Assembly (NCBI GenBank): GCA_016932785.1
Contig: JAFGCJ010000003.1
Span: 40,971-104,970, forward strand
Direction: 5' to 3'
DNA from: Candidatus Dojkabacteria bacterium
GTDB taxonomy: Bacteria; Patescibacteriota; Dojkabacteria; SC72; JAFGCJ01
DNA length: 64,000 bases
Under the pieces are notes generated by a model. It searched no databases. It worked only from the letters and a program-made list of their open reading frames with translations, and was not told the origin of the DNA. Within the stretch, counting starts at the first letter, position 1, and the number at the start of each line of letters is the position of its first letter. Made by a program: the position numbers and the translations under genes. Below are positions 8,506 through 54,345 of this stretch, one piece after another.

Positions 8506-9060
8506 TTACCGGCAATTCCAGTAACAAAGAAATATCCTATCGCTGATTGCCGATTCTTTCACTGGACCCAAGAATCTTGAATCCATAGAGTTTTTTCTGT
8601 TATCTCCCATCACAAAAACATATCCCTCCGGAACTACAGTTACTGCCATATCTCCACCACAATCCTTTCCAATAAAATCGTCACCAAACAGTGAATGAGA
8701 CTTTTCGAAATGCTCCTTAGACTCCCTGCCACCATTTATATATAGAATCCCTTCTTTGATTTCAAGTTTGTCCCCAGGCAATCCAACGACCCTATGAACA
8801 AAATCTACTCCCCTTTTACTTCTATATACAATAATGTCTCCACGTTCAATCTGATCCAGACTAACTTCCTTTCCCAAGACAAATTCTCCATCACCTAATG
8901 CAGGATCCATGGAATTACCGATCATCTGATGAGGTATTGTTATAGTGACTAATAAAACTAGTCCTCCAAAAATTACACACATCAAAAAAGCAGGAATCCC
9001 TATCACAGCAAGCAACAAGAGAGTCAACTGTTTCTTCTTCTTTTTCATTTTGCCTGGCAA
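8506..9060 (-). CDS. lepB: signal peptidase I
   Basis: 184 aa with an N-terminal TM helix. Box B is GNSMDPAL (catalytic Ser), followed by DFVHRVVGLPGD (Lys box region) and box E GDNRKNSMDSR. Confidence 0.9.
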   Translation of the reverse strand: MPGKMKKKKKQLTLLLLAVIGIPAFLMCVIFGGLVLLVTITIPHQMIGNSMDPALGDGEFVLGKEVSLDQIERGDIIVYRSKRGVDFVHRVVGLPGDKLEIKEGILYINGGRESKEHFEKSHSLFGDDFIGKDCGGDMAVTVVPEGYVFVMGDNRKNSMDSRFLGPVKESAISDRIFLCYWNCR

Positions 9061-13025: not shown

Positions 13026-13646
13026 ATGGCAACCTCAGACAAGTCGAACAAGGAGATCAACAAGCTAGCTAACAAAGCCAAGACCAATGCTTCTGCATTT
13101 GGGGAAATATACGATCACTTTGCAGAAGATGTATATGCATTTTTCTATCACCGCACAAATAACAATCAGGGACGTGCAGAAGACTTAGTCTCCGTAACCT
13201 TCGAGAAAATCCTCAAAAATATATCCAAATACGACGAAACCAAATCAAATTTCTCTACTTGGATCTACACAATTTCCCAAAATACCCTTACTGACCACTA
13301 CAGAAAACAGAAACACAGAGATGGAATTTCGCTTGACAGTACAGGAGAAAACGACAGCAGCAGTCTGAAAGAAAAGCAAGCCAGTAATAGTTCTCCCTCA
13401 TCAGACGTAATAACAGATAGAAACAGGAAGATTATCAACTTGGCCCTTTCAAAACTACCCCAAAAGGATCAGCTCGTAATAACACTTAAATACATGAGCG
13501 ACCTGACTTATAAGGAAATCGGCCAAAACATCGGATGTTCTTCAAATGCTGTAGGAGTAAGAATAAGCAGAGCACTGAAAAAACTTACCACCCAGCTTAA
13601 AAAACAAGGCTTAGATACAAAACTCGATTTAGAAAAGCAGACATGA
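13026..13646 (+). CDS. ECF-type RNA polymerase sigma-70 factor
   Basis: 206 aa. Region 2 is AEDLVSVTFEKILKNISKYDETKSNFSTWIYTISQNTLTDHYRK. Region 4 HTH is LTYKEIGQNIGCSSNAVGVRISRALKKL. Confidence 0.85.
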   Translation: MATSDKSNKEINKLANKAKTNASAFGEIYDHFAEDVYAFFYHRTNNNQGRAEDLVSVTFEKILKNISKYDETKSNFSTWIYTISQNTLTDHYRKQKHRDGISLDSTGENDSSSLKEKQASNSSPSSDVITDRNRKIINLALSKLPQKDQLVITLKYMSDLTYKEIGQNIGCSSNAVGVRISRALKKLTTQLKKQGLDTKLDLEKQT

Positions 13647-15412
13647 CAGAAAACAAACCACACAAAGATTTAAATAACCTAGAAGAGATTCTAAAGAAAT
13701 CATTCTCTCACAAATCTAAAATGAGAGAGAATTTTGCACAAGATCTTCGTGCAAAGCTTATATCCAAATATCAATCTAATTTATTAAATAATCATAATAT
13801 GGCAGAAAGCGAAAAGACTGGAAAGAAAGGACTACTGTCCAGACTTCCATTTAAGCATCTTAATATCGCAATTGCCGGTGCCGGATTTTTCGCACTGGGT
13901 ATAATTGCTGTCCTGGGATATATGTACATCCAGGGTACTGACTCTTTACCTTTCCAAAAGAGGTTCGGAACACTTCATGTAGTCAAGGGAAGTGCAACCG
14001 TTCTCCGAGACGGGGAGGAAATCAATATCGGAAAAGACGAAGAATTCCCTCTTGCCAAAGGTGACACGGTAGAAACAGACGAGGACACTATAGCAGACGT
14101 CGAAACAGAAGACGGCAGAGTTTCAATGTCTTCAGAGACTGTTGCCAAGTTTGAAAACGATGAAGGAGATGTCTCTGTCGAAAAAGGAGATGTTTACGCA
14201 AGATCTACAGAAGACACTGAAATTAATTTAGAGACACCAGACGGAAAAGTAAAAGTCGATGACGGCGCATCCTTCACAAGTGTAAGAGACGAGGAAGGAA
14301 CAACTGCAAGAAATATTCAAGGTAAGGTCGAAGGTTCTGTCGAGAAAGATGGCGAAGAGGCCTCAAAGGAAATATCCGAGGGTAAACAGATTCGAATCAA
14401 AGACAATGAAATCAGCGATGAAGAAGAAATGGACAGAGAAGACCTGAAAGATCCCCTTTGTGAACACAACACAGATAAGGACGAGGAGGAAGGCTACGAT
14501 CCCGGTACCGCTGAAGATACTACCGCTCCAGAAATAACTGTTGTCGAACCAGAAAACGGATCGTCCACATTCTCAAGCAAGATCACAGTAAAAGCAAAAT
14601 CCAATGAGGACGGCTGGGCAAAGTACAACGGAACATGGAATGCTATCAAGGCCAACGAGGAATTCTCATACGAAGCTGAGTTAAGTAAGGGATCAAACGA
14701 TATTACAGTAACAGCAAAAGATAAGTACTACAACATCGGAACTGCTACTGTAAAGGTAATCCTCGAATCTAAGGGAGCTATTTCTCTCAACGAGGTAACC
14801 GCTAAGTCCAATGGTATCTTCTTAAGGTGGAATGCAAGTGGAATTAACTCCAATTATAAGTACATCGTAAGAAGGAGCCTCAGCACAAAGAATACCTCTT
14901 CGGATCCAACTGTACTGACAATGAAGGCAACTAAAGATGACGTGTCATGGACCGATACTTCAACAGTTTACGGAAAAACATACTATTACCATGTAATTCT
15001 CCTAGGGGAAGATGGTAAAGAGGTTGACAGAACCTATACAAAGGGTGCAAAAGCTATCAATGTAGCAACCCCACCATCCACCGGATGCTCAATCAGTCTT
15101 GCTTTACTAAGCAAATGGTCAAGCCTTTCGGGATTAATAGGATCTGAGGATAAACATCTCAACCCAAGCTCAGGAGGCTATGCAAAGGTTAGCTGGAGCG
15201 TAAGTGGAGATTGCGGCGAATACTCAGGATTCAAGGTTGTATGGAGCCAAAGTCCAAATCCGACATATCCTGGAGACAGCGCAGCATATGTGGACAAGAA
15301 CACTTCAGTTCACACAATATCCGGACTAACTTCAGGTACCTGGTACATAAGGGTTGGAACATATAATGGAGGTGTCACACACTACAGTAATCAAGTAACA
15401 GTGACCTTCTAA
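13643..15412 (+). CDS. single-pass membrane protein, putative anti-sigma factor (FecR-like plus Ig/FN3-like ectodomains)
   Basis: 589 aa. ATGA start/stop overlap with the sigma gene. About 75 cytoplasmic residues precede a TM helix (IAIAGAGFFALGIIAVLGYMYI). A FecR-like segment follows (LHVVKGSATVLRDGEEI...GDTVETDEDTIADVE), then beta-rich repeats (ITVTAKDKYYN...; TWYIRVGTYNGG). Confidence 0.6.
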   Translation: MTENKPHKDLNNLEEILKKSFSHKSKMRENFAQDLRAKLISKYQSNLLNNHNMAESEKTGKKGLLSRLPFKHLNIAIAGAGFFALGIIAVLGYMYIQGTDSLPFQKRFGTLHVVKGSATVLRDGEEINIGKDEEFPLAKGDTVETDEDTIADVETEDGRVSMSSETVAKFENDEGDVSVEKGDVYARSTEDTEINLETPDGKVKVDDGASFTSVRDEEGTTARNIQGKVEGSVEKDGEEASKEISEGKQIRIKDNEISDEEEMDREDLKDPLCEHNTDKDEEEGYDPGTAEDTTAPEITVVEPENGSSTFSSKITVKAKSNEDGWAKYNGTWNAIKANEEFSYEAELSKGSNDITVTAKDKYYNIGTATVKVILESKGAISLNEVTAKSNGIFLRWNASGINSNYKYIVRRSLSTKNTSSDPTVLTMKATKDDVSWTDTSTVYGKTYYYHVILLGEDGKEVDRTYTKGAKAINVATPPSTGCSISLALLSKWSSLSGLIGSEDKHLNPSSGGYAKVSWSVSGDCGEYSGFKVVWSQSPNPTYPGDSAAYVDKNTSVHTISGLTSGTWYIRVGTYNGGVTHYSNQVTVTF

Positions 15413-15436
15413 CAACTTTAGAAGACGTCTTGAACC

Positions 15437-15469
15437 GAGCGGGGTTCCCGGCCATGGGGGGCCCCGCTC
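15437..15469 (+). terminator. GC-rich hairpin after the anti-sigma-like gene
   Basis: GAGCGGGG-ttcccggccatgggggg-CCCCGCTC, an 8-bp stem. The downstream T-tract is weak (ctagtttgg). Confidence 0.4.
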
Positions 15470-15543
15470 CTAGTTTGGTAATGTAAAACCCTACCCTGCC
15501 AATTGGAAATAGGCCTCAGTCACCTACATGCTATAATCTCAAC

Positions 15544-16422
15544 ATGATAAGGTTCGGAACCGGAGGTACCCCGCTCTCCACAAAAATCATCACCACAAAA
15601 GACGGTGCAAAACTATCCGGAAGAGAATCCGGTATTTATAGATCAGCGGAACTCGGCCTCAACCACCTAGAAATGGAATTCGTTCACGGAGTCAGGATAT
15701 CTGAGAAAGAGGCCCTCTCAATTAAAAGCACTGCTAAAGAAAAAAACATCACACTGTCTGCTCACGGCTCGTACTACATTAATCTTGCCTCAAAGGAAAA
15801 ACCAAAATACCACGCAAGTCTTAACCGCGTAAAAAAAGTACTCTGGGCCGGAAGTCTGATTGGTGCTAAATCTATAACATTTCATCCAGCTTTTTATCAG
15901 GGAAGAAGAACCGATGAGGTCGCAAAAATAGTATACGACGCGCTGATACAAATCATAGAAGAGACCAAGGACCTAAATAACAGGCCGCTCATCTCTCCTG
16001 AAACTACAGGAAAGCCTTCGCAATGGGGTTCCTTGGAGGAAATCCTTGACGTCGCGGCAAAGATAAACAAAAAAACAGGTGACTTTTGCGTCTCAGCTTG
16101 CATAGATTTCGCTCATCTACACGCCCGTTCTAACGGTCTCTACAATTCATACGAAGAGTTTAAAGCTATACTAAAGACGATAGAGTCAAAGCTCGGGAAA
16201 AAAGCCCTTAAAACACTTCACATGCATATCTCTGGAATTAACTACGGACCCAAGGGCGAAAAGAACCACCTTCCCCTTAAGGAGTCCGACCTCAAATACA
16301 AAGAGCTCTTACAGGCTCTGCACGACCTGAAAGTCTGTGGTTGGGTCTCATGCGAGAGCCCGAATCTTGAGGAGGATGCTTTACTTTTGAAGAAAGAGTA
16401 CGAGAAGACATCCAAGACATAA
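15544..16422 (+). CDS. endonuclease IV-like / xylose-isomerase-like TIM-barrel protein
   Basis: 292 aa. SAHGSYYINLAS, ITFHPAFY, IDFAHLHAR, LHMHISG...GEKNHLPL and WVSCESP line up by eye with the Nfo metal-ligand motifs. Confidence 0.65.
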   Translation: MIRFGTGGTPLSTKIITTKDGAKLSGRESGIYRSAELGLNHLEMEFVHGVRISEKEALSIKSTAKEKNITLSAHGSYYINLASKEKPKYHASLNRVKKVLWAGSLIGAKSITFHPAFYQGRRTDEVAKIVYDALIQIIEETKDLNNRPLISPETTGKPSQWGSLEEILDVAAKINKKTGDFCVSACIDFAHLHARSNGLYNSYEEFKAILKTIESKLGKKALKTLHMHISGINYGPKGEKNHLPLKESDLKYKELLQALHDLKVCGWVSCESPNLEEDALLLKKEYEKTSKT

Positions 16423-16598
16423 GCGCTACATCTCCTCCCATCCTACAATCTCTCCTCGGTACACCTCACGAAAGTATGAAAAGCCTGCCTTTAATGACAT
16501 ATTTGTATACCCAGGCCCGTATATGTTTTCTCTTTCTACTCTGGCTTAATAAAGAGACTGTCGAGATTTTATTCTCCCGAGCAAAGAGTCAAAAATAG

Positions 16599-19500
16599 CT
16601 AATCCGTTACCTCAATTGCTCCACTCCATGTCATCCCTCCAATATCCTCAAACCCCAGAAGGTACCCCTGCGAACCTGCGCCAGAGAAAGAACCACTAAA
16701 CGTAGCCACTGCGGGAAATTCAAACGAATAGATCTTCCCGTCACTAACCTTATATTCCTCAAATGTGACATGATCCTGGGCAACATCACCATATCTATTT
16801 GTATAATCATCTGAGCCCCATCTCCACCATTTTTGCAGAAAGTCATAATCGAACCGACCGAATTCATACTGTACAGGCTCAAAACCGGCCGGAATGAAGT
16901 CGTGGACCACCAGATTATAGCCATCTCTGTCGACCTTTACCTCCGTACGTATCATAACGACTTGTCCCTTACTTATCTTAGAAACTGAGGCTCCAGTATA
17001 AAAATCCCTGATATATCGCTTAACTTCGAACTCATTGTCTTCATCGATATCGGTAGTATAGTACCGGACAGTCGCTACGGAATATAAATCACCATTCCCA
17101 CTCCTCTCTATTTCGATCCTGTTCTTCCCTTCTTTCAGAAATCTAGAATCCACCGACACATCGTACTTACCAATGGAATTCTCATCTCCACCAACATCAA
17201 ATGTTTTAACATCCTTTCCGTTAACCTTAAGCGAAACCTTATTTACTCCTTTCCTACCCGATAGGTTATCTATATTTGCAATAGTTAGGGAGTAAAATAT
17301 TCCAACGGAATCCACACTATTGCCAGACAGATATACGGGATTATCTATCAGCCAGTTTCTGGCCTTTTCACCAAGTTCTGTCTGATTATATTCATGTAAA
17401 GCAAGATAAACTACAGCTGTTGTGTACTCAACAGATTTCACTACACGAAAGTCGGACTCTTCATCCTCCCAAGTAGCGGCCCTGTCAGATTCGTTCGCAG
17501 AATCAATAAGCAGAGGAATAAGCTCACCTGCATCACCAACTCCACCGAAATTCTGAAATGCAAGCATGAGATGGGCAACACTCAAAGAAGAATCTTCCAA
17601 ACCCTCAGCATTGTTTTTAAACCAAACAGCGAATGGTATTATATCTTCTTCTCCCATACATGAAAGAGCATAGATAGCAAATGCTTTTTCATCAACTGAT
17701 TTTTCATCACCTTCCAATCCCGACTTAAGATATACCGCAAGATTTTCTGTCATAGGCCCAGGATCTAATGCACCTGAATCGATAGCGTTTCCGAGCGCCA
17801 CACCAACATACGCACTCGTCTCATAGCTAACAGCATCATAATCAAACCACCCAAATCCACCATTATCGTCCTGATTTGACCTTAGCAAATCCACTGCAGC
17901 TTCAATCCTCCGCTGATAATCACCTCTTTCCTCACTAGGATCAATCTCATCGTAATACTTATAAAGAACGCTATTGTGAATCATGCTGCTGGCTAATTCC
18001 GCAGATGAAGAAATGCTCGAGTCAACAGGCAACAAAGCATATTCATTTACGAAGCTTCGCGCAAACGAAATGGTCAAAAGCGCATCTTCCTCATTAGTTC
18101 CCTCGGGCAACTCAAACTCAAGCTGGGATTCATTTTCATCGCCAGTCATATAATCAGATATCGTTTCTCCCCTCATCAATCCTTCACCTATTACAGGTAT
18201 CTTCCATTCAACAATGTCGTAGGTTTTACTAGAAGACGTCAGCGCAGCCTTAATCCTAACCTCATCCTCCCCCTCGCTCGGATCAATTTTGACGACCTGC
18301 TCAACCCGGCGGCCAGCGGAGAGACTAACATTCTTCTCGACCTTTTCATCTTCACACCCATCGCAATCCACAATCAACTTTGCATCAATAGAAGAAGAAG
18401 AGAAATTTTTCATCTCCAGATTCATATTCCAAACATCAGAGCTTCTCAAAAACTCCGGCACTTTTGCATCCAAAGTCACATCTTTTCTTGCTATAAATTC
18501 AGTTTCAGCGCTTCCAACCAGAGTATCGGTTGTAACCCCTACTACACAGGCTACCCATGTAGTTAGATTATCAGGAAGATGGAGCTTCACCTCTGCCTTC
18601 CCAGAACTATCTGTTTTCACCTTTCCATCCCAGTGAGCAATATCTTCAAAGTCCACCCTCGTGTCATCTCCACCACTTCCTCCGGCACCAAATCCTCCTC
18701 CGGTATAGCTATAGTAATACATTGATGAATAGAGCCCAGCCCACTGATTAACAGCCTCGTAAAAGCTTCCATGGATGTCGTATGGGTTCCCGTAGTTATT
18801 TGTGCTCTCTACCAGGTCCAGTAGTGCTTTATCTATAACATCAACAGACAATTCGGCTTCCACGCCTTTTCCCCGCCCATCGGTTACTTCGAGATCCAGC
18901 ACCACCTCGTCTCCAGGTTCATACACTGACTGATCAGGAGTAATCTTTATCTCAAGCTTCTTATAATCTTTATTTACAGTTACTACCTCACAATCCTCAG
19001 TCAATATATTTGTTAAAAGCTGAGAGCCTGAACCATTATTTTGGATGTACTCGTCCACTCCCCACACGCAAACATTCATAGTTGGAGCCATACTGTCTGT
19101 AATTTCCTCCTGAATTGACACAAGTCCCGTCGAGAAATCAACAATCTTCCAGTCATAAACATCTCCTCTAGAAATCATGAAGATTCCTTTACCTTCCAGA
19201 GTGCTCTGAATGTTAATTTCAGCCTTATCACCAACGTTATATTCATCCTTGTCGAAATAAAGCCTAATCTTCTGATACTCAGAGTCCCAATCATAAAACT
19301 TTCCATCATCTGATTCCTCAAACACATAGAAGACCCCACTGAAAACTCGCGTATATCCGTTTTCATCATAATACTTCAACATCATGTCATACGATCCATA
19401 CCCAAGATCTGTTAGTGCGAAACTAGCATTTCCAGATGAATCGGTAGTAAGCTCATGGTCCTCCATAACTGTCTCTTCTCTTTTCACGATTTCATACATA

Positions 19501-22070
19501 GGATCTTCGCTCATAGTATCGGGGTTGTAGTAAGTTCCTACTTGGGTCAATTCGCTCCATGTTCTCTTTACCTTTACAACCTCAACTTTTACACCACCCT
19601 TTGAGCTGAAATCCCAGAGATTAACGGTCCTCAAATTAATAGTATTATCTTCACCCTCTCTTACCGACAGAGACTCCGCCTTCGCAAACAGTGCTGAATC
19701 AGGACCAGCAACCTCTATCCTTTCACTATCATAAGAAGAGAAATCACCCAAGAGACTAATATAGGCCGAATATCTTCCAAAGTTCGCAACACCACTATCG
19801 AAATATACCCTCAATGGATATCTTGCATGACCGTTACTGTCGAGAGTCATAGTAGTATCAACAATCGCCTCATTTCCAGAACCCCAATAGTTGCTAATAT
19901 TCTGATCATAGTCGGACGCGCTATCAAACCAATTCACATCATCAAGAGCGCGACGATCAACAGAAAGTTTCACCTTCAAACCTTGTGCCGGATCTCCAGA
20001 ATAATCCTTACCCCAAATATCAATATTCACAAGCTCTCCGCTTAAAGCCCGAGTCTTATCGAAACTAAGTTCTATCTGATACCGAGGTTTCACATACTCA
20101 GCAACTCTGAATCCGTGATATCCTATTTTTTCTCCATCTATGAGCAACTCTATTGTTTGATAATCGGTCGGTGTATTTGCAGGTAATACAAAAGATCCGG
20201 ATATGGTTCCAAAATCTCTCGAAATATTATAAGACTCTTCATATATGGGACTCTTTTGAAGATCGTTCCAGTAATAATAGCTTGTACCTACACGAACAGT
20301 AACCTCCTTATCACCGGGAAGGGAGTAAGACATATCATCCTCTCTTCTAACAATCGCTTTAAACTTGACCTCATCACCGGGTCTGTAGATGGGTTTATCT
20401 GTATACACATATGACCTAAAAGATTCATTTGCAACTCCCCAAGGACTTATTGCCATCCACCAGTCGTGTATATCATTTGGTCCCACAGCCAGATTTCCCA
20501 GATAGTCGACGATGACAAGATCTATTCCGGACCCTTCGTAATCACCATATCCGTTCCCATCGGTTTGATCAGCCGCTATTGGAGAAATCGATTTATCCAG
20601 ATCATAGAACTCAACCTCGGCCCCGCTTACTGGTTCTTTATCATTTACATCAAATACCCAAGTTCTTTGATTATTCAGACTATCCGAGACTACGGCAGCA
20701 ACCGGTGTATACACGGCATACTTATATATCGACCTTCCATACTGAGAGTTATAAGCTTCAATAAAATAAATACCATAATCGTCGAAATCCACAGTCACCT
20801 GATTTAACTGAGAGGGGCTCCTGTAGAAGGTTGACACCAGAGTAAGCTCCGAATCCGAAGGCTTTTCACTAATATCCCACTGGTAGTCCTTCACCATATT
20901 TATTAGAGCACTTTTGGTTGTTCTATAAACATTAAATTTCGTATTTGTGGTTACATCATCATATAGAACAGTTATTCTAAGGTCTTTACTGACAGAAATA
21001 ATAGGTTTGTGTTCAGACCAACTGATCATCGGGTAATCAATATACTTTCCTGAACTGTCAACACTCGATATCTTAAACTTCGAAACATGGTCTTCGGTTA
21101 ATTCGTCTCCTCTGCTGTTCTTGAAGCCTTTCTTAATCACAACCTCATATATGGTCCCCGGAACCAACCTCTTTGCTGGTCTAAATACAATCTTCTTACC
21201 ATGAAGCTCAAATTTCCCAGAAACTGAAGGATTTATTTCAAAATAGCTCTCAAACTGATCTACATCAAGATCCCTGTAATTAAATTGAACCTCAATTGTA
21301 GTGTCTACGGGTGCAGTAGTAGATCCATCTCGAGGTGTAATACCAACAACGTCAAACCGGGGCTCCGTTTGAAACACCCAGGTCATATCCTTAGCCAACG
21401 AGGAACCATCACTAAACATTGTACCTTTCCTTAGGGTTACCTGATACTCGGTACCCTCAGCAAGATCTCCGCTTGGGACAATTCTCAACTGAGTGTTATT
21501 TTCTTCAAGCTCGACATCATAGTTGAATCTTGGGGTTACGGAAACCTTATTATTAATACCAAGGGACCTAAAGGCCACATCGTCTCTAGTCGATATAAGA
21601 AATTCGTTGTCCTCAATACCAACACCATATTCTGTCTCAACCTGCTTATCCATAACAAGAACTGGTGGTCTCTTTTGAATGTCCCGAAGAATCGGAAGAT
21701 CTCCACCCCTGTACCAAATCAGTGCGAAAGCAAGCAAACCGAAAAAGACAAACACGCTCATCATACCTCCTCCTATAACAGAAATCCTGTAAGACAAAGG
21801 TCTAGCAGCAAAACCGGCAAAAAATCTCTGAAGAAAACTTGGTTTATCCTCTGTTGTCTCTGCAATCTCTCTAGCGAAATCAGAATGTCCCGCAGAATCC
21901 AACCGCTGTGCCAATTTCCCATCAATCTGAGAATCTATAGCTCTGTCCTTATCCTGCCTGGCAGCAGCCTTTTTCGCGGCACGAAACATAGAGAAAAGAT
22001 TCTTAACCAGACGATCTGCTTTTCTCATGCTTGTTTTTTTCTGTTTCTTCTCCGATTTCTTCTTTGCCAT
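16599..22070 (-). CDS. alpha-2-macroglobulin-family giant surface protein, N-terminally TM-anchored
   Basis: 1823 aa. About 95 basic cytoplasmic residues precede a TM helix (VIGGGMMSVFVFFGLLAFALIWY). SbsA/Big_5-like Ig domains follow. MG-domain hallmarks are present: VYTDKPIYRPGDEVKFKAIVR and PDQSVYEPGDEVVLDLEVTD. The A2M hallmark LPDNLTTWVACVVGVT and the TED-like NQDDNGGFGWFDYD are also present. Confidence 0.85.
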   Translation of the reverse strand: MAKKKSEKKQKKTSMRKADRLVKNLFSMFRAAKKAAARQDKDRAIDSQIDGKLAQRLDSAGHSDFAREIAETTEDKPSFLQRFFAGFAARPLSYRISVIGGGMMSVFVFFGLLAFALIWYRGGDLPILRDIQKRPPVLVMDKQVETEYGVGIEDNEFLISTRDDVAFRSLGINNKVSVTPRFNYDVELEENNTQLRIVPSGDLAEGTEYQVTLRKGTMFSDGSSLAKDMTWVFQTEPRFDVVGITPRDGSTTAPVDTTIEVQFNYRDLDVDQFESYFEINPSVSGKFELHGKKIVFRPAKRLVPGTIYEVVIKKGFKNSRGDELTEDHVSKFKISSVDSSGKYIDYPMISWSEHKPIISVSKDLRITVLYDDVTTNTKFNVYRTTKSALINMVKDYQWDISEKPSDSELTLVSTFYRSPSQLNQVTVDFDDYGIYFIEAYNSQYGRSIYKYAVYTPVAAVVSDSLNNQRTWVFDVNDKEPVSGAEVEFYDLDKSISPIAADQTDGNGYGDYEGSGIDLVIVDYLGNLAVGPNDIHDWWMAISPWGVANESFRSYVYTDKPIYRPGDEVKFKAIVRREDDMSYSLPGDKEVTVRVGTSYYYWNDLQKSPIYEESYNISRDFGTISGSFVLPANTPTDYQTIELLIDGEKIGYHGFRVAEYVKPRYQIELSFDKTRALSGELVNIDIWGKDYSGDPAQGLKVKLSVDRRALDDVNWFDSASDYDQNISNYWGSGNEAIVDTTMTLDSNGHARYPLRVYFDSGVANFGRYSAYISLLGDFSSYDSERIEVAGPDSALFAKAESLSVREGEDNTINLRTVNLWDFSSKGGVKVEVVKVKRTWSELTQVGTYYNPDTMSEDPMYEIVKREETVMEDHELTTDSSGNASFALTDLGYGSYDMMLKYYDENGYTRVFSGVFYVFEESDDGKFYDWDSEYQKIRLYFDKDEYNVGDKAEINIQSTLEGKGIFMISRGDVYDWKIVDFSTGLVSIQEEITDSMAPTMNVCVWGVDEYIQNNGSGSQLLTNILTEDCEVVTVNKDYKKLEIKITPDQSVYEPGDEVVLDLEVTDGRGKGVEAELSVDVIDKALLDLVESTNNYGNPYDIHGSFYEAVNQWAGLYSSMYYYSYTGGGFGAGGSGGDDTRVDFEDIAHWDGKVKTDSSGKAEVKLHLPDNLTTWVACVVGVTTDTLVGSAETEFIARKDVTLDAKVPEFLRSSDVWNMNLEMKNFSSSSIDAKLIVDCDGCEDEKVEKNVSLSAGRRVEQVVKIDPSEGEDEVRIKAALTSSSKTYDIVEWKIPVIGEGLMRGETISDYMTGDENESQLEFELPEGTNEEDALLTISFARSFVNEYALLPVDSSISSSAELASSMIHNSVLYKYYDEIDPSEERGDYQRRIEAAVDLLRSNQDDNGGFGWFDYDAVSYETSAYVGVALGNAIDSGALDPGPMTENLAVYLKSGLEGDEKSVDEKAFAIYALSCMGEEDIIPFAVWFKNNAEGLEDSSLSVAHLMLAFQNFGGVGDAGELIPLLIDSANESDRAATWEDEESDFRVVKSVEYTTAVVYLALHEYNQTELGEKARNWLIDNPVYLSGNSVDSVGIFYSLTIANIDNLSGRKGVNKVSLKVNGKDVKTFDVGGDENSIGKYDVSVDSRFLKEGKNRIEIERSGNGDLYSVATVRYYTTDIDEDNEFEVKRYIRDFYTGASVSKISKGQVVMIRTEVKVDRDGYNLVVHDFIPAGFEPVQYEFGRFDYDFLQKWWRWGSDDYTNRYGDVAQDHVTFEEYKVSDGKIYSFEFPAVATFSGSFSGAGSQGYLLGFEDIGGMTWSGAIEVTD

Positions 22071-22071
22071 G

Positions 22072-22629
22072 TTAAGAATAGAGCTCGTTAAGTTTATCTT
22101 TTATTTTCTTAATACTCCTATACATCGTCATCTTACAGGCACCCTCTTCTTTATCAACTATTTTAGCAATTTCTCTAAACCTCATTCCTTCTTCAAAACG
22201 CAGGGTAAGTATTTCCTGCTCCTCCTCACCTATAGACTCAAGTGCTTTACTAACATACTCCATCTTTTCTTCTTTCATAGCCTCACCAACAAAGTCTTCA
22301 AAGACACGCGTTGCAGAATCAACCTCTTCATCCTCAATTGGCCGTTTTTTCCTGTTCTTAGATTTTCGTAGATGATCTATACTCGCATTTCTTGCGACAG
22401 TATAGACCCAGGCACACATCCCTTTCTCATCACGGTTCGATACGTCATCCCATCTTTCGTAGAGCTTCATAAAAACATCGGCCGTTAAGTCCTCGGATAG
22501 CTCAGCATTGGAGATTTTTCTATAAACATACCAGTAAATTTTCTGTCGATACTTCATGTAAAACCCCTTGAACCTTTTATTCTTGGCTTCTTCATTGCTT
22601 TGTTTTTCCTCAGACTTATTCTGTGCCAA
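22072..22629 (-). CDS. ECF-type RNA polymerase sigma-70 factor
   Basis: 185 aa as tracked, with a TTG start. An alternative ATG at 22557 has an AAGGGG Shine-Dalgarno 6 nt upstream. Region 2 is SEDLTADVFMKLYERW...CAWVYTVARNASIDHLRK. Region 4 is MRFREIAKIVDKEEGACKMTMYRSIKKI. The stop codon lies 1 nt from the A2M-like start. Confidence 0.85.
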   Translation of the reverse strand: MAQNKSEEKQSNEEAKNKRFKGFYMKYRQKIYWYVYRKISNAELSEDLTADVFMKLYERWDDVSNRDEKGMCAWVYTVARNASIDHLRKSKNRKKRPIEDEEVDSATRVFEDFVGEAMKEEKMEYVSKALESIGEEEQEILTLRFEEGMRFREIAKIVDKEEGACKMTMYRSIKKIKDKLNELYS

Positions 22630-22678
22630 GCGGGTCAGTGCTAAAATAAACGTTTAGTACTGGTATAAGTAACAAGTA

Positions 22679-22873
22679 TTATTCGACAACTATCGCATTT
22701 GAGGGGCAGACGCTGGAAATTTCGTTCAGATCCTTTCCTTCAAGATTGGCATCGTCCTTAACCTTAGCCGATCCATCGGGTGCAAATTCAAAAACGTCAG
22801 GATAGACTGCAGAGCAGGTTCCACATTTAGTACAAAGCTCCTTTTTCACCTTAAGTTTCTTGTTATCACTCAT
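22679..22873 (-). CDS. small single-cluster ferredoxin
   Basis: 64 aa. CTKCGTCSAVYPDVF...VCPSNAI (CxxCxxC...CP). Confidence 0.8.
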   Translation of the reverse strand: MSDNKKLKVKKELCTKCGTCSAVYPDVFEFAPDGSAKVKDDANLEGKDLNEISSVCPSNAIVVE

Positions 22874-22892: not shown

Positions 22893-22915
22893 ATAATTGT
22901 GATTTACACAATTAT
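22893..22915. promoter_or_regulatory. perfect 9-bp-arm palindrome upstream of the ferredoxin gene
   Basis: ATAATTGTG-attta-CACAATTAT, 20-42 nt upstream of the ATG at 22873. Confidence 0.35.
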
Positions 22916-22989
22916 TCCCCCTACCTAAAAAATTTGCAAGGATAACTGCATATACGAATAACAAAAACATCCGTAACAATGAATTTCAC

Positions 22990-49770: not shown

Positions 49771-50859
49771 ATGTCAGGATGCATAAAAGCCTTCCGCTGG
49801 ACCATTTCTGTTTTCCTAATACTACTAATTATTCCAACAATAACCATCGGTGTGCCTCTAGTATCTGTTTCAACCTACCTTGCAAACCGGGAAACCCCCA
49901 AGAGATGGCTCAAAGAGATCGAACTTTACGATAATGCCTTGGATATAGCTCTGGATGTACTTGAAAAACAAAAGGAAGGCTCATACTTTATTGATTTAAA
50001 GGACAGAATAGATGATGAAGATAGCGACGTAAGTGAGGCCGTTCACAGACTGGCAGATCCGGATTTCCTTGAGGAAAGCATAGAAACTGTGATAGATGCC
50101 TACTACGATTGGTTCGAAGGCGAAACAGATAAACCTGAATACAGTATACCCATAGCTGAGGACAAGGAGACACTGGTGGTACTTCTCTCAGCAGGTTTTA
50201 AGGAAAAGGTCAGAGGTCTTCCTGTTTGCGAAGAAGGATTCGTCATCACCGATGATTTCAACCCGATTGAGACAGAATGCCAACCTGAAGGATATGACTT
50301 CGATGAAATCACAAGATACCTGGAGGACAACGCTGACTCGGATGAATTCGAGGAACTTCTCAGCAAAGCAAACATTTCTTCTGACGAAATAGAATTAAGT
50401 GACGAGACAACTGAGCAGGCACAACTTCTATACAATAAAATCAAAATCTATCCAATAATATTCCTGTCAGGAACTATTATTCTTGTGCTCTTATTAATAC
50501 TACTAATTCCTGGTGTCAAAACATCCTTCATGACTACAGGGATTGTACTTATCGTTTCATCAGTGTTTACTACCATAACCGGCTTGATAATAAAGATCAT
50601 TATCAACTTTGGATCGCAAAAAGGACTCGATGAAATCAAAGACAAAAATTATGAGGAGCTCGAAAAAATACTTGGAGAGCTAATTAGAGTAGTATCGGCA
50701 GATATAACAAGGAGAACCCTACTCATAGCGCTTACAATTCTTGTCATAGGAGTACTTTTGACAATAATCGGCGCGGTTATAAAAAAAAAGAAGGATAACG
50801 CGGGAGAAGACTCCACTAAGCCTTCGAAAAGTGAAGAGAAAAAAGCAGACAAGAGTTAG
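49771..50859 (+). CDS. hypothetical polytopic membrane protein with acidic ectodomain
   Basis: 362 aa with about 4 TM helices and a Lys-rich tail. Confidence 0.6.
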   Translation: MSGCIKAFRWTISVFLILLIIPTITIGVPLVSVSTYLANRETPKRWLKEIELYDNALDIALDVLEKQKEGSYFIDLKDRIDDEDSDVSEAVHRLADPDFLEESIETVIDAYYDWFEGETDKPEYSIPIAEDKETLVVLLSAGFKEKVRGLPVCEEGFVITDDFNPIETECQPEGYDFDEITRYLEDNADSDEFEELLSKANISSDEIELSDETTEQAQLLYNKIKIYPIIFLSGTIILVLLLILLIPGVKTSFMTTGIVLIVSSVFTTITGLIIKIIINFGSQKGLDEIKDKNYEELEKILGELIRVVSADITRRTLLIALTILVIGVLLTIIGAVIKKKKDNAGEDSTKPSKSEEKKADKS

Positions 50860-51524
50860 CCCAAAATCTCCACTCCGCCGAATATAGCATCCCCGTCTAT
50901 TGTCAGCACGGGAAGTTTCTTATCATTTCTACTTGTAAACTTATCCTCCCATGCACCAAGTGCCGCCGATCCAAGAGATACTACTCTACACTTATCCGGT
51001 ACCCATATTTTTACTCCTCCAAAAATAGCCGACACATCAATTTTGGCACCAGACTTAGAGATTTTCGCGCTTCTAAGATCCAGTTCAACAGCACCAAATA
51101 CAGCCGAAACATCACCCCCTTTATAGTTTTCAGACACTATATTCTTCTTAACACCGGTACAAACAGCCGAGGCCTCAACGCTTTCTCTATCTACAGCGTC
51201 AGACGAAACACCTTTATACTTAAAGACATCACCCAGCAGAATTGAAAGCCCAAGGAAAATAATTATGGAAGGCCAGAGCACCGTCCAAAAGCTCCAACCA
51301 AACCAAGCGGATACCGTAAACAAAAAGCCGAAGAAGATGATCCAAAGGCCCGTCATTGTGTTCCCCTTAATTAGAATGGATGTCCCCAAAACAATCACCA
51401 ACAAAGGCCATATTTTCCCCAAAAGCCCTCCCCCGGCAAAGCCCAAAGATTCCAGAAGAAGAACACTGCCTACAATTACAACTATTGCACCAAAAATCGG
51501 CCTTCTACTACCTTTACCCTTCAT
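50856..51524 (-). CDS. LiaF-like / toastrack-domain membrane protein
   Basis: 222 aa. The N-terminal 4-TM block resembles the LiaI-LiaF type. The C-terminal repeats are AVFGAVELDL, AIFGGVKIWVP, AIFGGVEILG. Confidence 0.6.
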   Translation of the reverse strand: MKGKGSRRPIFGAIVVIVGSVLLLESLGFAGGGLLGKIWPLLVIVLGTSILIKGNTMTGLWIIFFGFLFTVSAWFGWSFWTVLWPSIIIFLGLSILLGDVFKYKGVSSDAVDRESVEASAVCTGVKKNIVSENYKGGDVSAVFGAVELDLRSAKISKSGAKIDVSAIFGGVKIWVPDKCRVVSLGSAALGAWEDKFTSRNDKKLPVLTIDGDAIFGGVEILG

Positions 51525-51574
51525 GAATAATTTTGTTAAATTTAGTTACTGGAGAAGCCTTCTTTAGAGAAATA

Positions 51575-52786
51575 CTAGTCCCTCTTTATGACAAAGCTCC
51601 CCACTCCGACATCAACAGTAATTTCTATCCGATGCTCGGCATCATTATAGTTATCAGACTCATAGGTTTTACTGTCTCCTCCTATACCGGAAATCTTCTT
51701 CCCCGGCATATTAATTGAACCAACCCCCAACTCGTAATTCAAATTGAAGCCAACCCCTTCTGGAATCACAAGGATCATTGATCCTGCTCCAACTTCTACT
51801 TTGACCTCACCTTCGGGCACTGTATCCCCCACCATCTTGACCTCCAGACTACCAGCACCTACATCTAGATCCATCGAATCAATAACCAAATCATCCAGCA
51901 CAACCTCAAGCACACCGGCTCCAACATCTATCTTGAGATCTTCCAAAGTTACTTCGTTAAGATCTATTTTGCCCTTTCCAGCGCCAAGATCAATGTCTAA
52001 TCTTGTTTTAACATCTGGCATCCCAAGAACAAAATCATAACTTGGTCCCCTCGACGGAATATCCCACAGACCAGACGGGCCATCAGTACTGAACGAAATC
52101 TCAAGAGATCTTTCTTTCAGCTTTTCTGTAATATTGGGCTCCCCAAAATTGTCAAAATATTTAGCATCAAGAAACATATAATTGCTACTATCGTCGTCTT
52201 TTATCGTAAACTCTGCAGCGTCTAGATCAAGCTTCAACGTCCTGCTGTCAATATTTTCGTCTTCATATTCAATTCTATACGTTTGGGATTCACTCTTCCC
52301 AACGTACAACGTCACATTTTCACTTAAGCTGTTAAGCCAGGATGGAACAGAAAAGTTGATTCTATCAAGAAAATCATGACCAGATATAACAAATGAAACC
52401 GCGACAATGAGAGAAAAAACTGAAAAAGCCAACAAACCCGAAACACATCCGCCAAGCTTCGATCTGCCAAATATCAGCTGAATACCCCAAATCACAATAA
52501 ATACAGGCCAGAATCGCCAAAGTATGCCCCAGACACCCCAGGATAACAGACCTGTTGTATTTAGCAGTAGAATAACACCCACAAATATCCAAAATACCGC
52601 CCAAACAAAACGCCCACCGTCATATCTCTTTTCATCGTAACGTCGAAAAACACTTTCACTTTTTTCCACAGATGGCTCAGAACCTTTTACAACATCTTCC
52701 TGAACCTTCTTCTCCTTTATCTTAACCGGACTCGAGCTTTTACTTTTGCTCTTACTTTTACCTGATTTTCCCTTAGAACGTGCCAT
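51575..52786 (-). CDS. toastrack (DUF4097/LiaF-like) membrane protein
   Basis: 403 aa. Lys/Ser-rich N-terminus, 4 TM helices, then five (D/E)-(L/V)-G-(A/V)-G beta-repeats (IDLGAGKG, IDVGAGVL, LDVGAGSL, VEVGAGSM, YELGVGSI). Confidence 0.6.
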   Translation of the reverse strand: MARSKGKSGKSKSKSKSSSPVKIKEKKVQEDVVKGSEPSVEKSESVFRRYDEKRYDGGRFVWAVFWIFVGVILLLNTTGLLSWGVWGILWRFWPVFIVIWGIQLIFGRSKLGGCVSGLLAFSVFSLIVAVSFVISGHDFLDRINFSVPSWLNSLSENVTLYVGKSESQTYRIEYEDENIDSRTLKLDLDAAEFTIKDDDSSNYMFLDAKYFDNFGEPNITEKLKERSLEISFSTDGPSGLWDIPSRGPSYDFVLGMPDVKTRLDIDLGAGKGKIDLNEVTLEDLKIDVGAGVLEVVLDDLVIDSMDLDVGAGSLEVKMVGDTVPEGEVKVEVGAGSMILVIPEGVGFNLNYELGVGSINMPGKKISGIGGDSKTYESDNYNDAEHRIEITVDVGVGSFVIKRD

Positions 52787-52842
52787 AGCAGTATTCTGAC
52801 AAATTAGTACACCACCTCATCGACTTCCCAATTAGACAAGGG

Positions 52843-53073
52843 CTATTTCTCTCCAACTTTTGTTGCTCCTTTAACGTCAGACTCAGTCGGGATAACAATC
52901 CAAAGGATAATATAAACTAATATTCCTGACCCACCAAACAACACAACAAGAACCCATATGATCCTAACAATTGTAGGATCAACATCGAAATACTCACCTA
53001 TACCACCACACACTCCAGCAATCATTCGATTACTCTCTGAACGATATATCCTTTTATTTTCTTTAGACATCAA
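52843..53073 (-). CDS. pspC: PspC-domain protein
   Basis: 76 aa. RIYRSESNRMIAGVCGGIGEYFDVDPTIVRIIWVLVVLF. Confidence 0.85.
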   Translation of the reverse strand: MMSKENKRIYRSESNRMIAGVCGGIGEYFDVDPTIVRIIWVLVVLFGGSGILVYIILWIVIPTESDVKGATKVGEK

Positions 53074-53208
53074 GCTATTGGCTAATAAATAAATTAGAAG
53101 AACAACATAATTTCATTTTACCAAAAATGCTCACAGTCACCAATATTTAAGGGAAAAACATTCAAAATCGAAGCGGTCTTCACCGACTTACTGTTTTACC
53201 CAGAAAGA

Positions 53209-54345
53209 CTATTTAAGCATGTAACCACGCCCATGAACAGTCTTAATAAGATCACCCTCCACCCCAAGACTTCTTAACTTCTTCCTCAGCCTCTTTATTA
53301 ACTGTGTAATAGCCCAATCCGAGTAGTTCTCTAGACTTTCACCAGGCCAAATAGCTTCCGCAATTTGCTCTTTACTTACAAGCTTTCCCCTCATTTTTGC
53401 CAGTAACGTCACAGCGTTATACTCGGCCGGAGAAAAAGAATGAACAACGCTTACTCCCTCAACAAAAAGGTCTCCAGTATTTGGATCAAACGCAAAATTC
53501 TTCTTTCCATCGAGCCTAGAGACAATATCCTGTACTACGGCATTCTTATTCAAAAACTCCATAAGATCTACATCCTCCGGCCTATTCTCCAGCGACATTG
53601 CCGCATACTTAATCAAGTATGGATATCCTCTACTAACTTTTTTGATAGCTTCCTGCTCATCCCTCGTAAATTTCTTATCGAGGATATAGCCCCACCTGGT
53701 AACAAGATAATCGACATCCCGAGAAGGAAGCGATCCAAACTCAACAATGTTTTCCTTCATAAGATCCCTTATCAAAGCAAATTTCTCGCTATTCATCTGG
53801 TAAGGAGCTTCTTCATAGACGAGAAACAAAAATCGTACACGTGAAGGATTCATATCAGCCTCCCTAAGAGACCTAATATTCCCCCACATAAACTTATAAG
53901 CAAACTCCAAGAACCCAATACCTCGCAAAACAAATATGATCTCATACTTCTTCTGACACTTTGATACTTCTCTTCGCACCTCATCAAGAAGCTCGGAATA
54001 TGAAGAAAATGCTTTTGGTTTTCTCCCTGGACAGCATTTTTCCAGTAATTTCCGGTATATAAGGTTCATGTAGGAATGCTTGCTGTCTTCCGACATTTCA
54101 TTGGGATCAATTATGATTATCTTCTGGTCGTTCGTAGAAATGTTTACTTTATTTGACTTGGCAAGCTTATCGACCTCAGAGACCAAAAAGCGTATAAGTG
54201 ATATGCCCCCGCCAAAACGATACGCAACTCGCACGGTAACATTGTGACCAGATGCTAGTGGCCTGAATATCTTCCTAAAAATGTCGTTTGTCGTCTTCTC
54301 TGTCAGGGGGTAGTAATATTTTGAATTTCTCGAAATTCTTTTCAC
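53209..54345 (-). CDS. OmpR/PhoB-type winged-helix DNA-binding protein with an N-terminal degenerate NTPase-like domain (no receiver domain)
   Basis: 378 aa. The C-terminus is FSPAEYNAVTLLAKMRGKLVSKEQIAEAIW...ITQLIKRLRKKL...IKTVHGRGYMLK. The N-terminal ~270 aa are alpha/beta, with AYRFGGGISLI where a P-loop would sit. Confidence 0.65.
   Translation of the reverse strand: MKRISRNSKYYYPLTEKTTNDIFRKIFRPLASGHNVTVRVAYRFGGGISLIRFLVSEVDKLAKSNKVNISTNDQKIIIIDPNEMSEDSKHSYMNLIYRKLLEKCCPGRKPKAFSSYSELLDEVRREVSKCQKKYEIIFVLRGIGFLEFAYKFMWGNIRSLREADMNPSRVRFLFLVYEEAPYQMNSEKFALIRDLMKENIVEFGSLPSRDVDYLVTRWGYILDKKFTRDEQEAIKKVSRGYPYLIKYAAMSLENRPEDVDLMEFLNKNAVVQDIVSRLDGKKNFAFDPNTGDLFVEGVSVVHSFSPAEYNAVTLLAKMRGKLVSKEQIAEAIWPGESLENYSDWAITQLIKRLRKKLRSLGVEGDLIKTVHGRGYMLK

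Follow-up and report, generated by a model that had tools for sequence, protein, structure and literature searches.

We analyzed a 64,000-nucleotide (nt) stretch of DNA from Candidatus Dojkabacteria bacterium (GenBank assembly GCA_016932785.1, contig JAFGCJ010000003.1, positions 40,971 to 104,970; hereafter the window). Two adjacent genes on its minus strand encode a sigma factor of the extracytoplasmic function (ECF) type together with a 1823-amino-acid (aa) membrane-anchored protein of the alpha-2-macroglobulin (A2M) superfamily. On balance, we favor the reading that the two proteins form a cognate pair, in which the A2M-like protein would act as a membrane-bound anti-sigma factor and sensor in an autoregulated operon that probably responds to proteases.

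The sigma factor open reading frame (ORF), 185 aa long from a TTG codon, lies at 22072..22629 (minus strand) and was identified by Pfam and NCBIfam matches. The 1823-aa ORF occupies 16599..22070 on the same strand. The TAA codon of the sigma gene (22074..22072) is followed by a single base (c) and by the ATG codon of the giant ORF (22070..22068), and the sequence thus bears out the coordinates and the 1-nt gap of the preliminary description. In the related loci, the corresponding stop-to-start gap ranges from −29 to +30 nt when annotated or first ATG starts are taken; L007 and L010 fall within this range only if an upstream non-ATG start is used. The giant ORF therefore occupies the place of an anti-sigma factor gene, directly downstream (+1) of the sigma gene, on the same strand, and overlapping or abutting it (gap of 1 nt here). 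Its product has the corresponding topology, single-pass with the N-terminus inside and a cytoplasmic N-terminal domain of 50–100 aa (95 aa here). The deposited annotation of the identical Candidatus Dojkabacteria protein reads only "Ig-like domain-containing protein."

The Sigma-A2M Pair Is Conserved in Deep Lineages of the Candidate Phyla Radiation

The proposal that the two genes belong together depended on the conservation of their adjacency, which was found both in close relatives and in relatives only 22–27% identical that lie in other gene neighborhoods. A2M orthologs that are 40–53% identical and approximately 1840 aa long directly follow a sigma gene of the same family in L001, L002, L003, and L007 and in two metagenome loci (L086 and L087). 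By scanning one genome per GTDB species for conserved ectodomain motifs, we collected 79 A2M loci from many phyla. A hidden Markov model (HMM) search of these loci detected a sigma gene in nine of them (L007, L008, L010, L011, L012, L015, L023, L025, and L027), always immediately upstream and on the same strand; the search also re-found the sigma genes of L001–L004. No sigma gene was present at any of about 58 A2M loci with short N-termini, among them all sampled loci of Chloroflexota, Armatimonadota, Acidobacteriota, and Bacillota and other A2M paralogs from the candidate phyla radiation (CPR); no A2M locus sampled from outside the CPR had one. Look-ups that started from the sigma gene gave the same arrangement in four of four cases (L088–L091): a ferredoxin gene, the sigma gene, and a giant ORF with the same N-terminal tail and no CxEQ motif.

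The pairs fall into two clades. The D clade, of the Dojkabacteria type, comprises 12 loci with the pair: the window, L001–L003, L007, the divergent L010, and L086–L091. The P clade comprises seven (L004, L011, L012, L015, L023, L025, and L027), from metagenome-assembled genomes of Peregrinibacteria, Gracilibacteria, and Peribacteria. P-clade A2Ms are 22–27% identical to the window protein and have other neighbors, often with a DnaJ gene upstream. The pairing spans at least two deep CPR clades.

The presence of the sigma gene is tightly associated with a long cytoplasmic tail on the A2M. Among the 67 loci ascertained by the ectodomain that have complete N-termini, a long tail, defined as a first transmembrane (TM) segment at residue 55 or later, was found in eight of the nine sigma-linked loci and in one of the 58 others (Fisher P = 1.2e-8). 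The start codon of that single long-tailed locus without a sigma gene is uncertain, and the ninth sigma-linked locus, L010, can be aligned to the D-type tail once a non-ATG start is assumed. Furthermore, the tail and the sigma factor vary together: D-type tails occur with D-clade sigma factors and P-type tails with P-clade sigma factors. No homology is detectable between the two tail types, and the D-clade and P-clade sigma factors are only 22–28% identical, no closer to each other than either is to the second ECF sigma factor of the window. Tail type and sigma clade thus change together, a pattern expected of cognate, co-evolving sigma/anti-sigma pairs and not easily explained by a tail unrelated to the sigma factor. 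The genomic evidence for a functional coupling of the sigma factor and the A2M is strong and extends across deep CPR lineages.

A Long Cytoplasmic Tail Is the Candidate Anti-Sigma Domain

The topology given in the preliminary description, with about 95 basic, helix-prone residues, one TM helix, and a huge ectodomain, agrees with both a hydrophobicity scan and an AlphaFold2 (AF2) model. The tail (residues 1–95; 21786..22070, minus strand), compared in an alignment of 16 tails, is the candidate anti-sigma domain. It contains 24 Lys and Arg against 12 Asp and Glu residues. D-clade tails begin with a variable, basic low-complexity segment, followed by three to four helices; the AF2 model of the tail and TM segment (residues 1–137) places helices at residues 6–59, 63–73, and 79–89, with pLDDT values of 60–73. 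The most conserved stretch of the tail is the motif KLAQRLDSAG (residues 52–61; 21888..21917, minus strand), in which L53, Q55, L57, D58, and G61 are invariant. Mean pairwise conservation is 0.69 at residues 48–62 versus 0.47 for the whole protein, which places this cytoplasmic motif among the best-conserved stretches of a mostly extracellular protein.

The single TM helix spans residues ~96–119 (21714..21785, minus strand) according to the hydrophobicity scan and residues 92–121 in the AF2 model. A GGG triplet is conserved at its cytoplasmic end, and the conserved juxtamembrane motif WYRGxDIPILRNF (21681..21716, minus strand) lies just past the helix; G101, Y120, R121, G122, and P126 are conserved in this region. 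One may speculate that the GGG triplet and the invariant WYRGxDIP are determinants of proteolytic processing.

A search with the tail profile of 1.84 billion representative proteins returned this A2M family, two short fragments, and some repetitive proteins. As the A2M family is the only one recovered, the tail is family-specific. P-clade tails belong to a different sequence family, with the patterns KKIRQL..LDS.. and ..AP..AR..F...LR..LL. When the two tail types are compared with hhalign, LAQRLDSAG of the D type and LNQDLDSGK of the P type (within RQLNQDLDSGK) fall in register, a match that is not significant (P = 0.009, probability 4%). Two weak hints favor an anti-sigma nature of the P-type tail: it matches the NCBIfam "antisigma" model NF052375 with E = 0.024, and it aligns with the tail of the protein paired with the other sigma factor of the window over 58 columns with 33% identity (hhalign P = 4e-4). 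When P-type tails were used in a word-indexed search, a single fragment came up, an uninformative outcome.

The Ectodomain Is A2M-Like and Has Lost the Thioester

Its domain content and profile matches identify the 1823-aa protein as a true member of the A2M superfamily. The Pfam domains Big_5, MG2, A2M_BRD, A2M, and bMG10 all score above their gathering thresholds, and the family profile matches E. coli YfhM/ECAM (3e-48, over ~1100 positions), Salmonella A2M (6e-47), and human A2M (2e-25). The A2M assignment of the preliminary description hence survives HMM searches, and the motifs on which it relied are present: TDKPIYRPGDEV at residues 557–568 and LPDNLTTW at residues 1165–1172.

From the N-terminus, the ectodomain starts with bacterial Ig-like (Big_5) domains in two stretches at residues ~173–332 (21075..21554; PF13205, 1.2e-16), followed by an MG2 domain at residues 553–656 (20103..20414; PF01835, 9.8e-12) and an A2M bait-region domain (A2M_BRD) at residues 937–1086 (18813..19262; PF07703, 1.2e-14), all on the minus strand like the features that follow. 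The A2M domain proper covers residues 1146–1231 (18378..18635; PF00207, 3.7e-13) and includes LPDNLTTW at 18555..18578. Between the bait-region and A2M domains, residues 1087–1140 (18651..18812) form the candidate bait segment, so called because of its position, by analogy with bacterial A2Ms. It combines a hypervariable stretch with the Gly-rich loop GGGFGAGGSGG (residues 1124–1134); conservation is 0.0–0.2 at residues 1086–1096 and 0.36 across the segment. The C-terminal part carries a region resembling the thioester domain (TED) at residues ~1341–1640 (17151..18050), alignable to the TEDs of the more distant relatives P0015 and P0016, and a bacterial MG10 domain at residues 1696–1801 (16668..16985; PF17973, 2.5e-10).

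The TED-like region had been recognized in the preliminary description. Its homology to TEDs holds: it keeps the conserved GGFGWFDYD motif, and the family profile matches the C-terminal fragment of YfhM (4ziu, 4e-20), although the Pfam scan detected no TED_complement match in the protein. A competence to form the thioester does not follow, as the degenerate site SSAEL (residues 1355–1359; 17994..18008) replaces GCAEQ of P0015 and P0016 in the alignment. No CxEQ thioester motif was found in the window protein and 13 orthologs (14 proteins in all), or in L007, L010, and L088–L091. With the thioester lost in this clade, trapping, if any, would be non-covalent. Most members of the P clade keep CxEQ.

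Sigma-linked A2Ms have undergone at least two losses of CxEQ: one affects the whole D clade, the other L023, a member of the otherwise thioester-positive P clade. A different mode of expansion of the family was observed in the metagenome contig L006 (4001..14009), which encodes two tandem thioester-containing A2M paralogs of 2002 and at least 2009 aa; both have N-termini of the ordinary signal type, and neither is accompanied by a sigma gene.

Sigma Factor, Promoter-Like Elements, and Ferredoxin

The sigma factor contains two Pfam regions only, Sigma70_r2 (residues 23–91) and Sigma70_r4_2 (residues 125–176), and scores 96 bits against the NCBIfam model TIGR02937 (cutoff 42.9). The best specific model is that of the BldN family (TIGR02952), and the nearest solved structure is sigma-BldN (6dxo, 2e-15). 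The protein is not a BldN ortholog, since its score of 107 bits is far below the family cutoff of 206. Translation must start upstream of Met25, as the RFKGFY stretch preceding this residue is conserved among orthologs. The sigma family is compact: it comprises 24 proteins at 44% identity or more, and the next relatives are only 26–29% identical. All D-clade sigma factors possess an invariant Cys in region 4.2 (EGACKM, residues ~160–165), at a position that reads ESNVG or SSNAVG in the P-clade sigma factors and in the second sigma factor of the window.

A promoter-like element of ECF type, GTTAC-N16-CGTTTA (22647..22673, minus strand), lies 18 nt 5' of the sigma start codon. In the D clade, the element takes the form TGTT(A/T/G)C-N16-CGT(A/T)TA and is always found just 5' of the sigma gene. 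It is exact in the window, L001, L002, L007, L010, and L090, has one mismatch in L086, L088, and L091, and has two in L089; it is thus kept in 10 of the 12 D-clade loci, and the rest of the intergenic sequence is not conserved. Its layout, in which 16 nt separate a −35 element with a terminal C from a −10 element that contains CGT, is shared by well-studied ECF promoters such as that of Bacillus subtilis sigma-W (TGAAAC-N16-CGTA). In the 64-kb window, GTTDC-N16-CGTWTA occurs twice (0.10 expected), both times in this operon and on the correct strand. The second copy, GTTAC-N16-CGTATA (22951..22977, minus strand), lies upstream of the ferredoxin gene; scans of four orthologous loci (L001, L002, L003, and L007) did not find the element there. 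A match to the looser pattern TGTTWC-N16-CGTWTW at 54214..54241 falls within coding sequence and does not satisfy the refined motif; it was dismissed as a chance occurrence.

The P clade has its own conserved element, TGTAATAC...TGTTT. In front of every P-clade sigma gene, ~80–110 nt upstream, an almost invariant TGTAATACTTTTT is followed ~10–12 nt on by TGTTT. This element, nearly invariant although the P-clade sigma factors are only 40–85% identical, probably serves the P clade as its cognate ECF promoter. The conservation of an ECF-type element before the sigma gene speaks for a sigma-A2M operon that is positively autoregulated, and GTTAC-N16-CGTTTA is presumed to be the autoregulatory promoter, with promoter activity and co-transcription of the downstream genes as predictions.

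The gene directly 5' of the sigma gene encodes a small 4Fe-4S ferredoxin of 64 aa (22679..22873, minus strand; Pfam Fer4_13, 4.5e-8, and Fer4_15). A ferredoxin of 64–96 aa with a single cluster is encoded at this place in 11 of the 12 D-clade loci (the window, L001–L003, L007, and L086–L091), and the position is kept despite insertions or different genes further upstream in L001, L003, and L091. The ferredoxin gene may belong to the module as a third member, or it may just be the last part of the suf/NifU cluster. Together with the Cys of region 4.2, the adjacent ferredoxin might hint at a redox control layer. On the other side of the pair, an AP endonuclease gene lies 3' of the A2M gene; the same neighbors (ferredoxin and sigma genes 5', AP endonuclease gene 3') are found in the orthologous loci. 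The ferredoxin-sigma-A2M gene cluster spans ~22977 down to 16561 on the minus strand. Consensus scans placed a terminator-like hairpin at 16561..16580 (minus strand), 19 nt past the A2M stop codon, and a sigma-70-like match (TTGCAA-17-AATAAT) at 22911..22939 (minus strand), 5' of the ferredoxin gene. Terminator-like hairpins are no more numerous in the window than in shuffled sequences, and sigma-70-like matches are fewer than expected from shuffles, so that the latter is weak evidence.

Proposed Mechanism and Alternative Explanations

We infer an anti-sigma role for the tail, and binding of the sigma factor by it, from features that now support this role much better than synteny and topology had in the preliminary description. 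In the proposed mechanism, the tail would bind the sigma factor and sequester it at the membrane, and the extracellular A2M body would serve as the sensor. The trigger would be either cleavage of the bait within residues 1087–1140, with the large conformational change that A2Ms typically undergo afterwards, or consumption of the trap. Once the ectodomain is attacked, the anchor would be destabilized and degraded, probably by regulated intramembrane proteolysis, and the freed sigma factor would transcribe from its own GTTAC-N16-CGTTTA promoter. Sigma factor and A2M would in this way be replenished, and other targets possibly be expressed. The inhibitor of a threat would double as its receptor, as with RsiV/sigma-V and lysozyme. 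In its full form, this proposal makes the A2M a transmembrane receptor from which bait attack or trap consumption releases a tail-held ECF sigma factor, and makes the pair an ancient module, with co-evolved sigma factors and tails, common to Dojkabacteria, Peregrinibacteria, Gracilibacteria, and Peribacteria. We put forward this full form only tentatively.

Several observations weigh against a protease-responsive sigma/anti-sigma pair. The sigma-linked loci form two clades, so that few independent evolutionary events underlie the association. With the thioester gone from the D clade, the case for protease trapping, and hence for protease sensing, is weaker. The tail resembles no known anti-sigma domain in searches against Pfam (E ≤ 10), NCBIfam, PDB profiles, and structures with Foldseek. 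The recognized types considered included zf-HC2/ZAS, RskA, RseA_N, and FecR-type domains, and none matched the D-type tail in Pfam at this threshold or in NCBIfam. The matches among PDB profiles were designed helical repeats only and were dismissed as compositional, and comparison of the AF2 model with the PDB by Foldseek gave nothing below E = 2. By its sequence, the tail has no zinc motif: the absence of HxxxCxxC already remarked in the preliminary description is borne out, and the tail lacks any Cys. AF2 models it as loose helices with no confident fold (pLDDT 68, pTM 0.27). Among the 1.84 billion proteins searched, the tail was seen on no other ectodomain, and domain shuffling lends the proposal no support. 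A scan for HExxH in the membrane ORFs of the 64-kb window revealed no site-2 protease; a signal peptidase of family S26 (8506..9060) is all that is present. Finally, co-transcription and promoter activity are deduced from the sequence alone. The lack of a known domain in the tail is in itself not unusual, because predicted ECF anti-sigma factors, which are typically encoded at +1, single-pass, and group-specific, mostly have no Pfam match (PMC7826278).

A stimulus other than a protease is also conceivable. The A2M could be an anti-sigma factor whose ectodomain serves these episymbiotic bacteria as an adhesin or contact sensor or simply as a reporter of envelope integrity, with the sigma factor freed on host contact, mechanical load, or envelope damage. 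It is chiefly because the thioester has disappeared from the whole Dojkabacteria-type clade that a non-protease stimulus must be taken seriously as a rival; L023 has lost it too. The Big_5 Ig-like domains near the N-terminus are of a type characteristic of surface and adhesion proteins, and giant A2M-like surface proteins of Patescibacteria are discussed in relation to host interaction in passages of a published article (PMC9793634). Against such a role, the bait-region domain, the hypervariable Gly-rich segment, and the A2M, TED-like, and MG10 domains have all been retained under constraint, and the CxEQ of most P-clade members points to an ancestral protease-trap function. We hold an adhesin or envelope sensor to be possible, if on the improbable side.

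Alternatively, the sigma factor could be a dedicated transcriptional activator, co-expressed with the A2M-like surface protein as its main target but not inhibited by it. Its activity would then be set in another way, for example at the level of transcription, by the neighboring ferredoxin or redox conditions, or through a regulator encoded elsewhere, and the tail would have another task, for instance in localization, in inserting so large a protein into the membrane, or in docking to a partner in the cytoplasm. The dissimilarity of the tail to known anti-sigma domains fits this possibility, as do the ferredoxin gene directly 5' of the sigma gene in 11 of 12 D-clade loci and the invariant Cys of EGACKM. 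Moreover, some ECF groups have no anti-sigma factors, and ECF54 genes neighbor that of a 4Fe-4S protein (PMC7826278). A mere activator leaves unexplained, however, why a long conserved tail is tied to an upstream sigma gene and why the tail type switches with the sigma clade. The P clade has the sigma-A2M pair without a ferredoxin gene, and a single-pass partner with its N-terminus inside, encoded at +1, is the typical anti-sigma arrangement. We judge this second alternative unlikely.

That the adjacency is simply an inherited gene order without functional coupling is very improbable: the wider neighborhood is syntenic in Dojkabacteria as well (SufS-NifU-exonuclease 5' and AP endonuclease 3'), but the pair persists amid other neighbors (L001, L003, L091, L010, and the whole P clade), its genes overlap or nearly abut, long tails and sigma genes co-occur, and both families are compact and correspond one to one.

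Comparison with Known Systems

The closest functional analogy to the putative sigma/anti-sigma pair of the window is RsiV/sigma-V of Bacillus subtilis, Enterococcus, and Clostridioides. RsiV is a single-pass anti-sigma factor with its N-terminus inside, encoded directly after an autoregulated ECF sigma factor. Its ectodomain binds lysozyme, the attacking host enzyme, and the sigma factor is freed by proteolysis of RsiV. The gene order and the single-pass N-in topology, here predicted from the sequence, are alike. RsiV differs by its small non-A2M ectodomain, its lysozyme ligand, and its recognized anti-sigma domain, as against a fold of ~1700 aa of A2M type and an orphan tail family here. In the RsgI/sigma-I pairs of Clostridium thermocellum, membrane anti-sigma factors likewise use modular extracellular sensor domains taken from other protein families. 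These are carbohydrate-binding modules, the sigma factor is of the sigma-I type, and RsgI has a recognized N-terminal domain, whereas the A2M-like protein has no known N-terminal family. In Streptomyces, RsbN, the partner of sigma-BldN, is a single-pass anti-sigma factor whose anti-sigma domain is not recognizable from its sequence. BldN is also the nearest solved sigma factor, but RsbN has no A2M ectodomain.

Among A2Ms, E. coli ECAM/YfhM and Salmonella A2M (PDB 5a42, 4rtd, and 4u48) belong to the same superfamily and share the domain order. They are periplasmic lipoproteins with a CLEQ thioester, usually encoded with PBP1c. The window protein differs by its cytoplasmic tail and TM helix, SSAEL in place of the thioester, and the ECF sigma gene upstream. 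Its N-terminus contains no lipobox, the 95-aa basic tail and TM helix standing in its place, and no PBP1c (pbpC) gene is adjacent to it here or in the orthologous loci. A2Ms of the YfaS/Pseudomonas MagD type lack the thioester and are associated with the cytoplasmic membrane. MagD is encoded in the six-gene mag operon and has neither a cytoplasmic tail nor a sigma factor. The A2M architecture without CxEQ is common to MagD and the window protein, but no genes of a mag-like multigene operon flank the window locus.

The logic of an ECF sigma factor held by a membrane anti-sigma factor is well known; the sensory module, and the idea of an A2M as a transmembrane transducer, are new. A2Ms are known as protease traps, and in animals receptors read their conformational change. 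Those of bacteria have so far been treated as passive periplasmic guards tied to cell-wall repair. If true, a conserved ECF sigma-A2M pair would enlarge the anti-sigma repertoire by a new sensory domain, would contain the first A2M that itself transduces a signal across a bacterial membrane, and would represent one of very few dedicated signaling circuits in CPR/Patescibacteria. It would provide minimal-genome epibionts with a direct, self-replenishing defense circuit that senses proteases. For host-attached cells with tiny genomes, sensing the proteases of a host or neighbor could be central to their way of life.

For the giant A2M-like proteins of Patescibacteria (Vampirococcus, Absconditicoccus, and Gracilibacteria), a protection from host proteases has been proposed (PMC9793634); the passages of the reports on these proteins make no mention of a linked sigma factor or a cytoplasmic tail. 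The main text of the ECF classification paper mentions neither A2M nor CPR (PMC7826278). In the literature on anti-sigma or ECF factors in connection with macroglobulin, thioester, CPR, or Patescibacteria, we found no description of a sigma-A2M pairing.

Other Features of the Window

A second ECF sigma factor (206 aa; 13026..13646, plus strand) is encoded in the window. As the preliminary description had noted, its gene is coupled to that of a single-pass protein (13643..15412, plus strand) through an ATGA overlap. The "FecR-like" label given there to this partner does not hold: no FecR match was obtained in Pfam or NCBIfam, even at E ≤ 10. The partner is a 589-aa protein in which only Glucodextran_B and fn3 domains were recognized and whose juxtamembrane region is acidic and repeat-like. 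The tail on its cytoplasmic side (…RENFAQDLRAKLISKY) is the one that resembles P-clade A2M tails in the hhalign comparison above, which suggests a wider family of CPR anti-sigma tails.

On the minus strand at 50856..54345, two adjoining genes encode LiaF-like membrane proteins of 222 and 403 aa. A 378-aa protein encoded beside them has a C-terminal OmpR-type Trans_reg_C domain only, its N-terminal 300 aa being unrecognized. The cluster may form an envelope-stress module of an unusual kind, in which no histidine kinase is visible.

Most genes of the 64-kb window lie on the minus strand. The GC skew is negative in all 2-kb windows but one (14001..16000, slightly positive), with a cumulative value of −6.5. 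Skew and strand bias together indicate that the whole window belongs to a single replichore, in which the plus strand is the template for the lagging strand.

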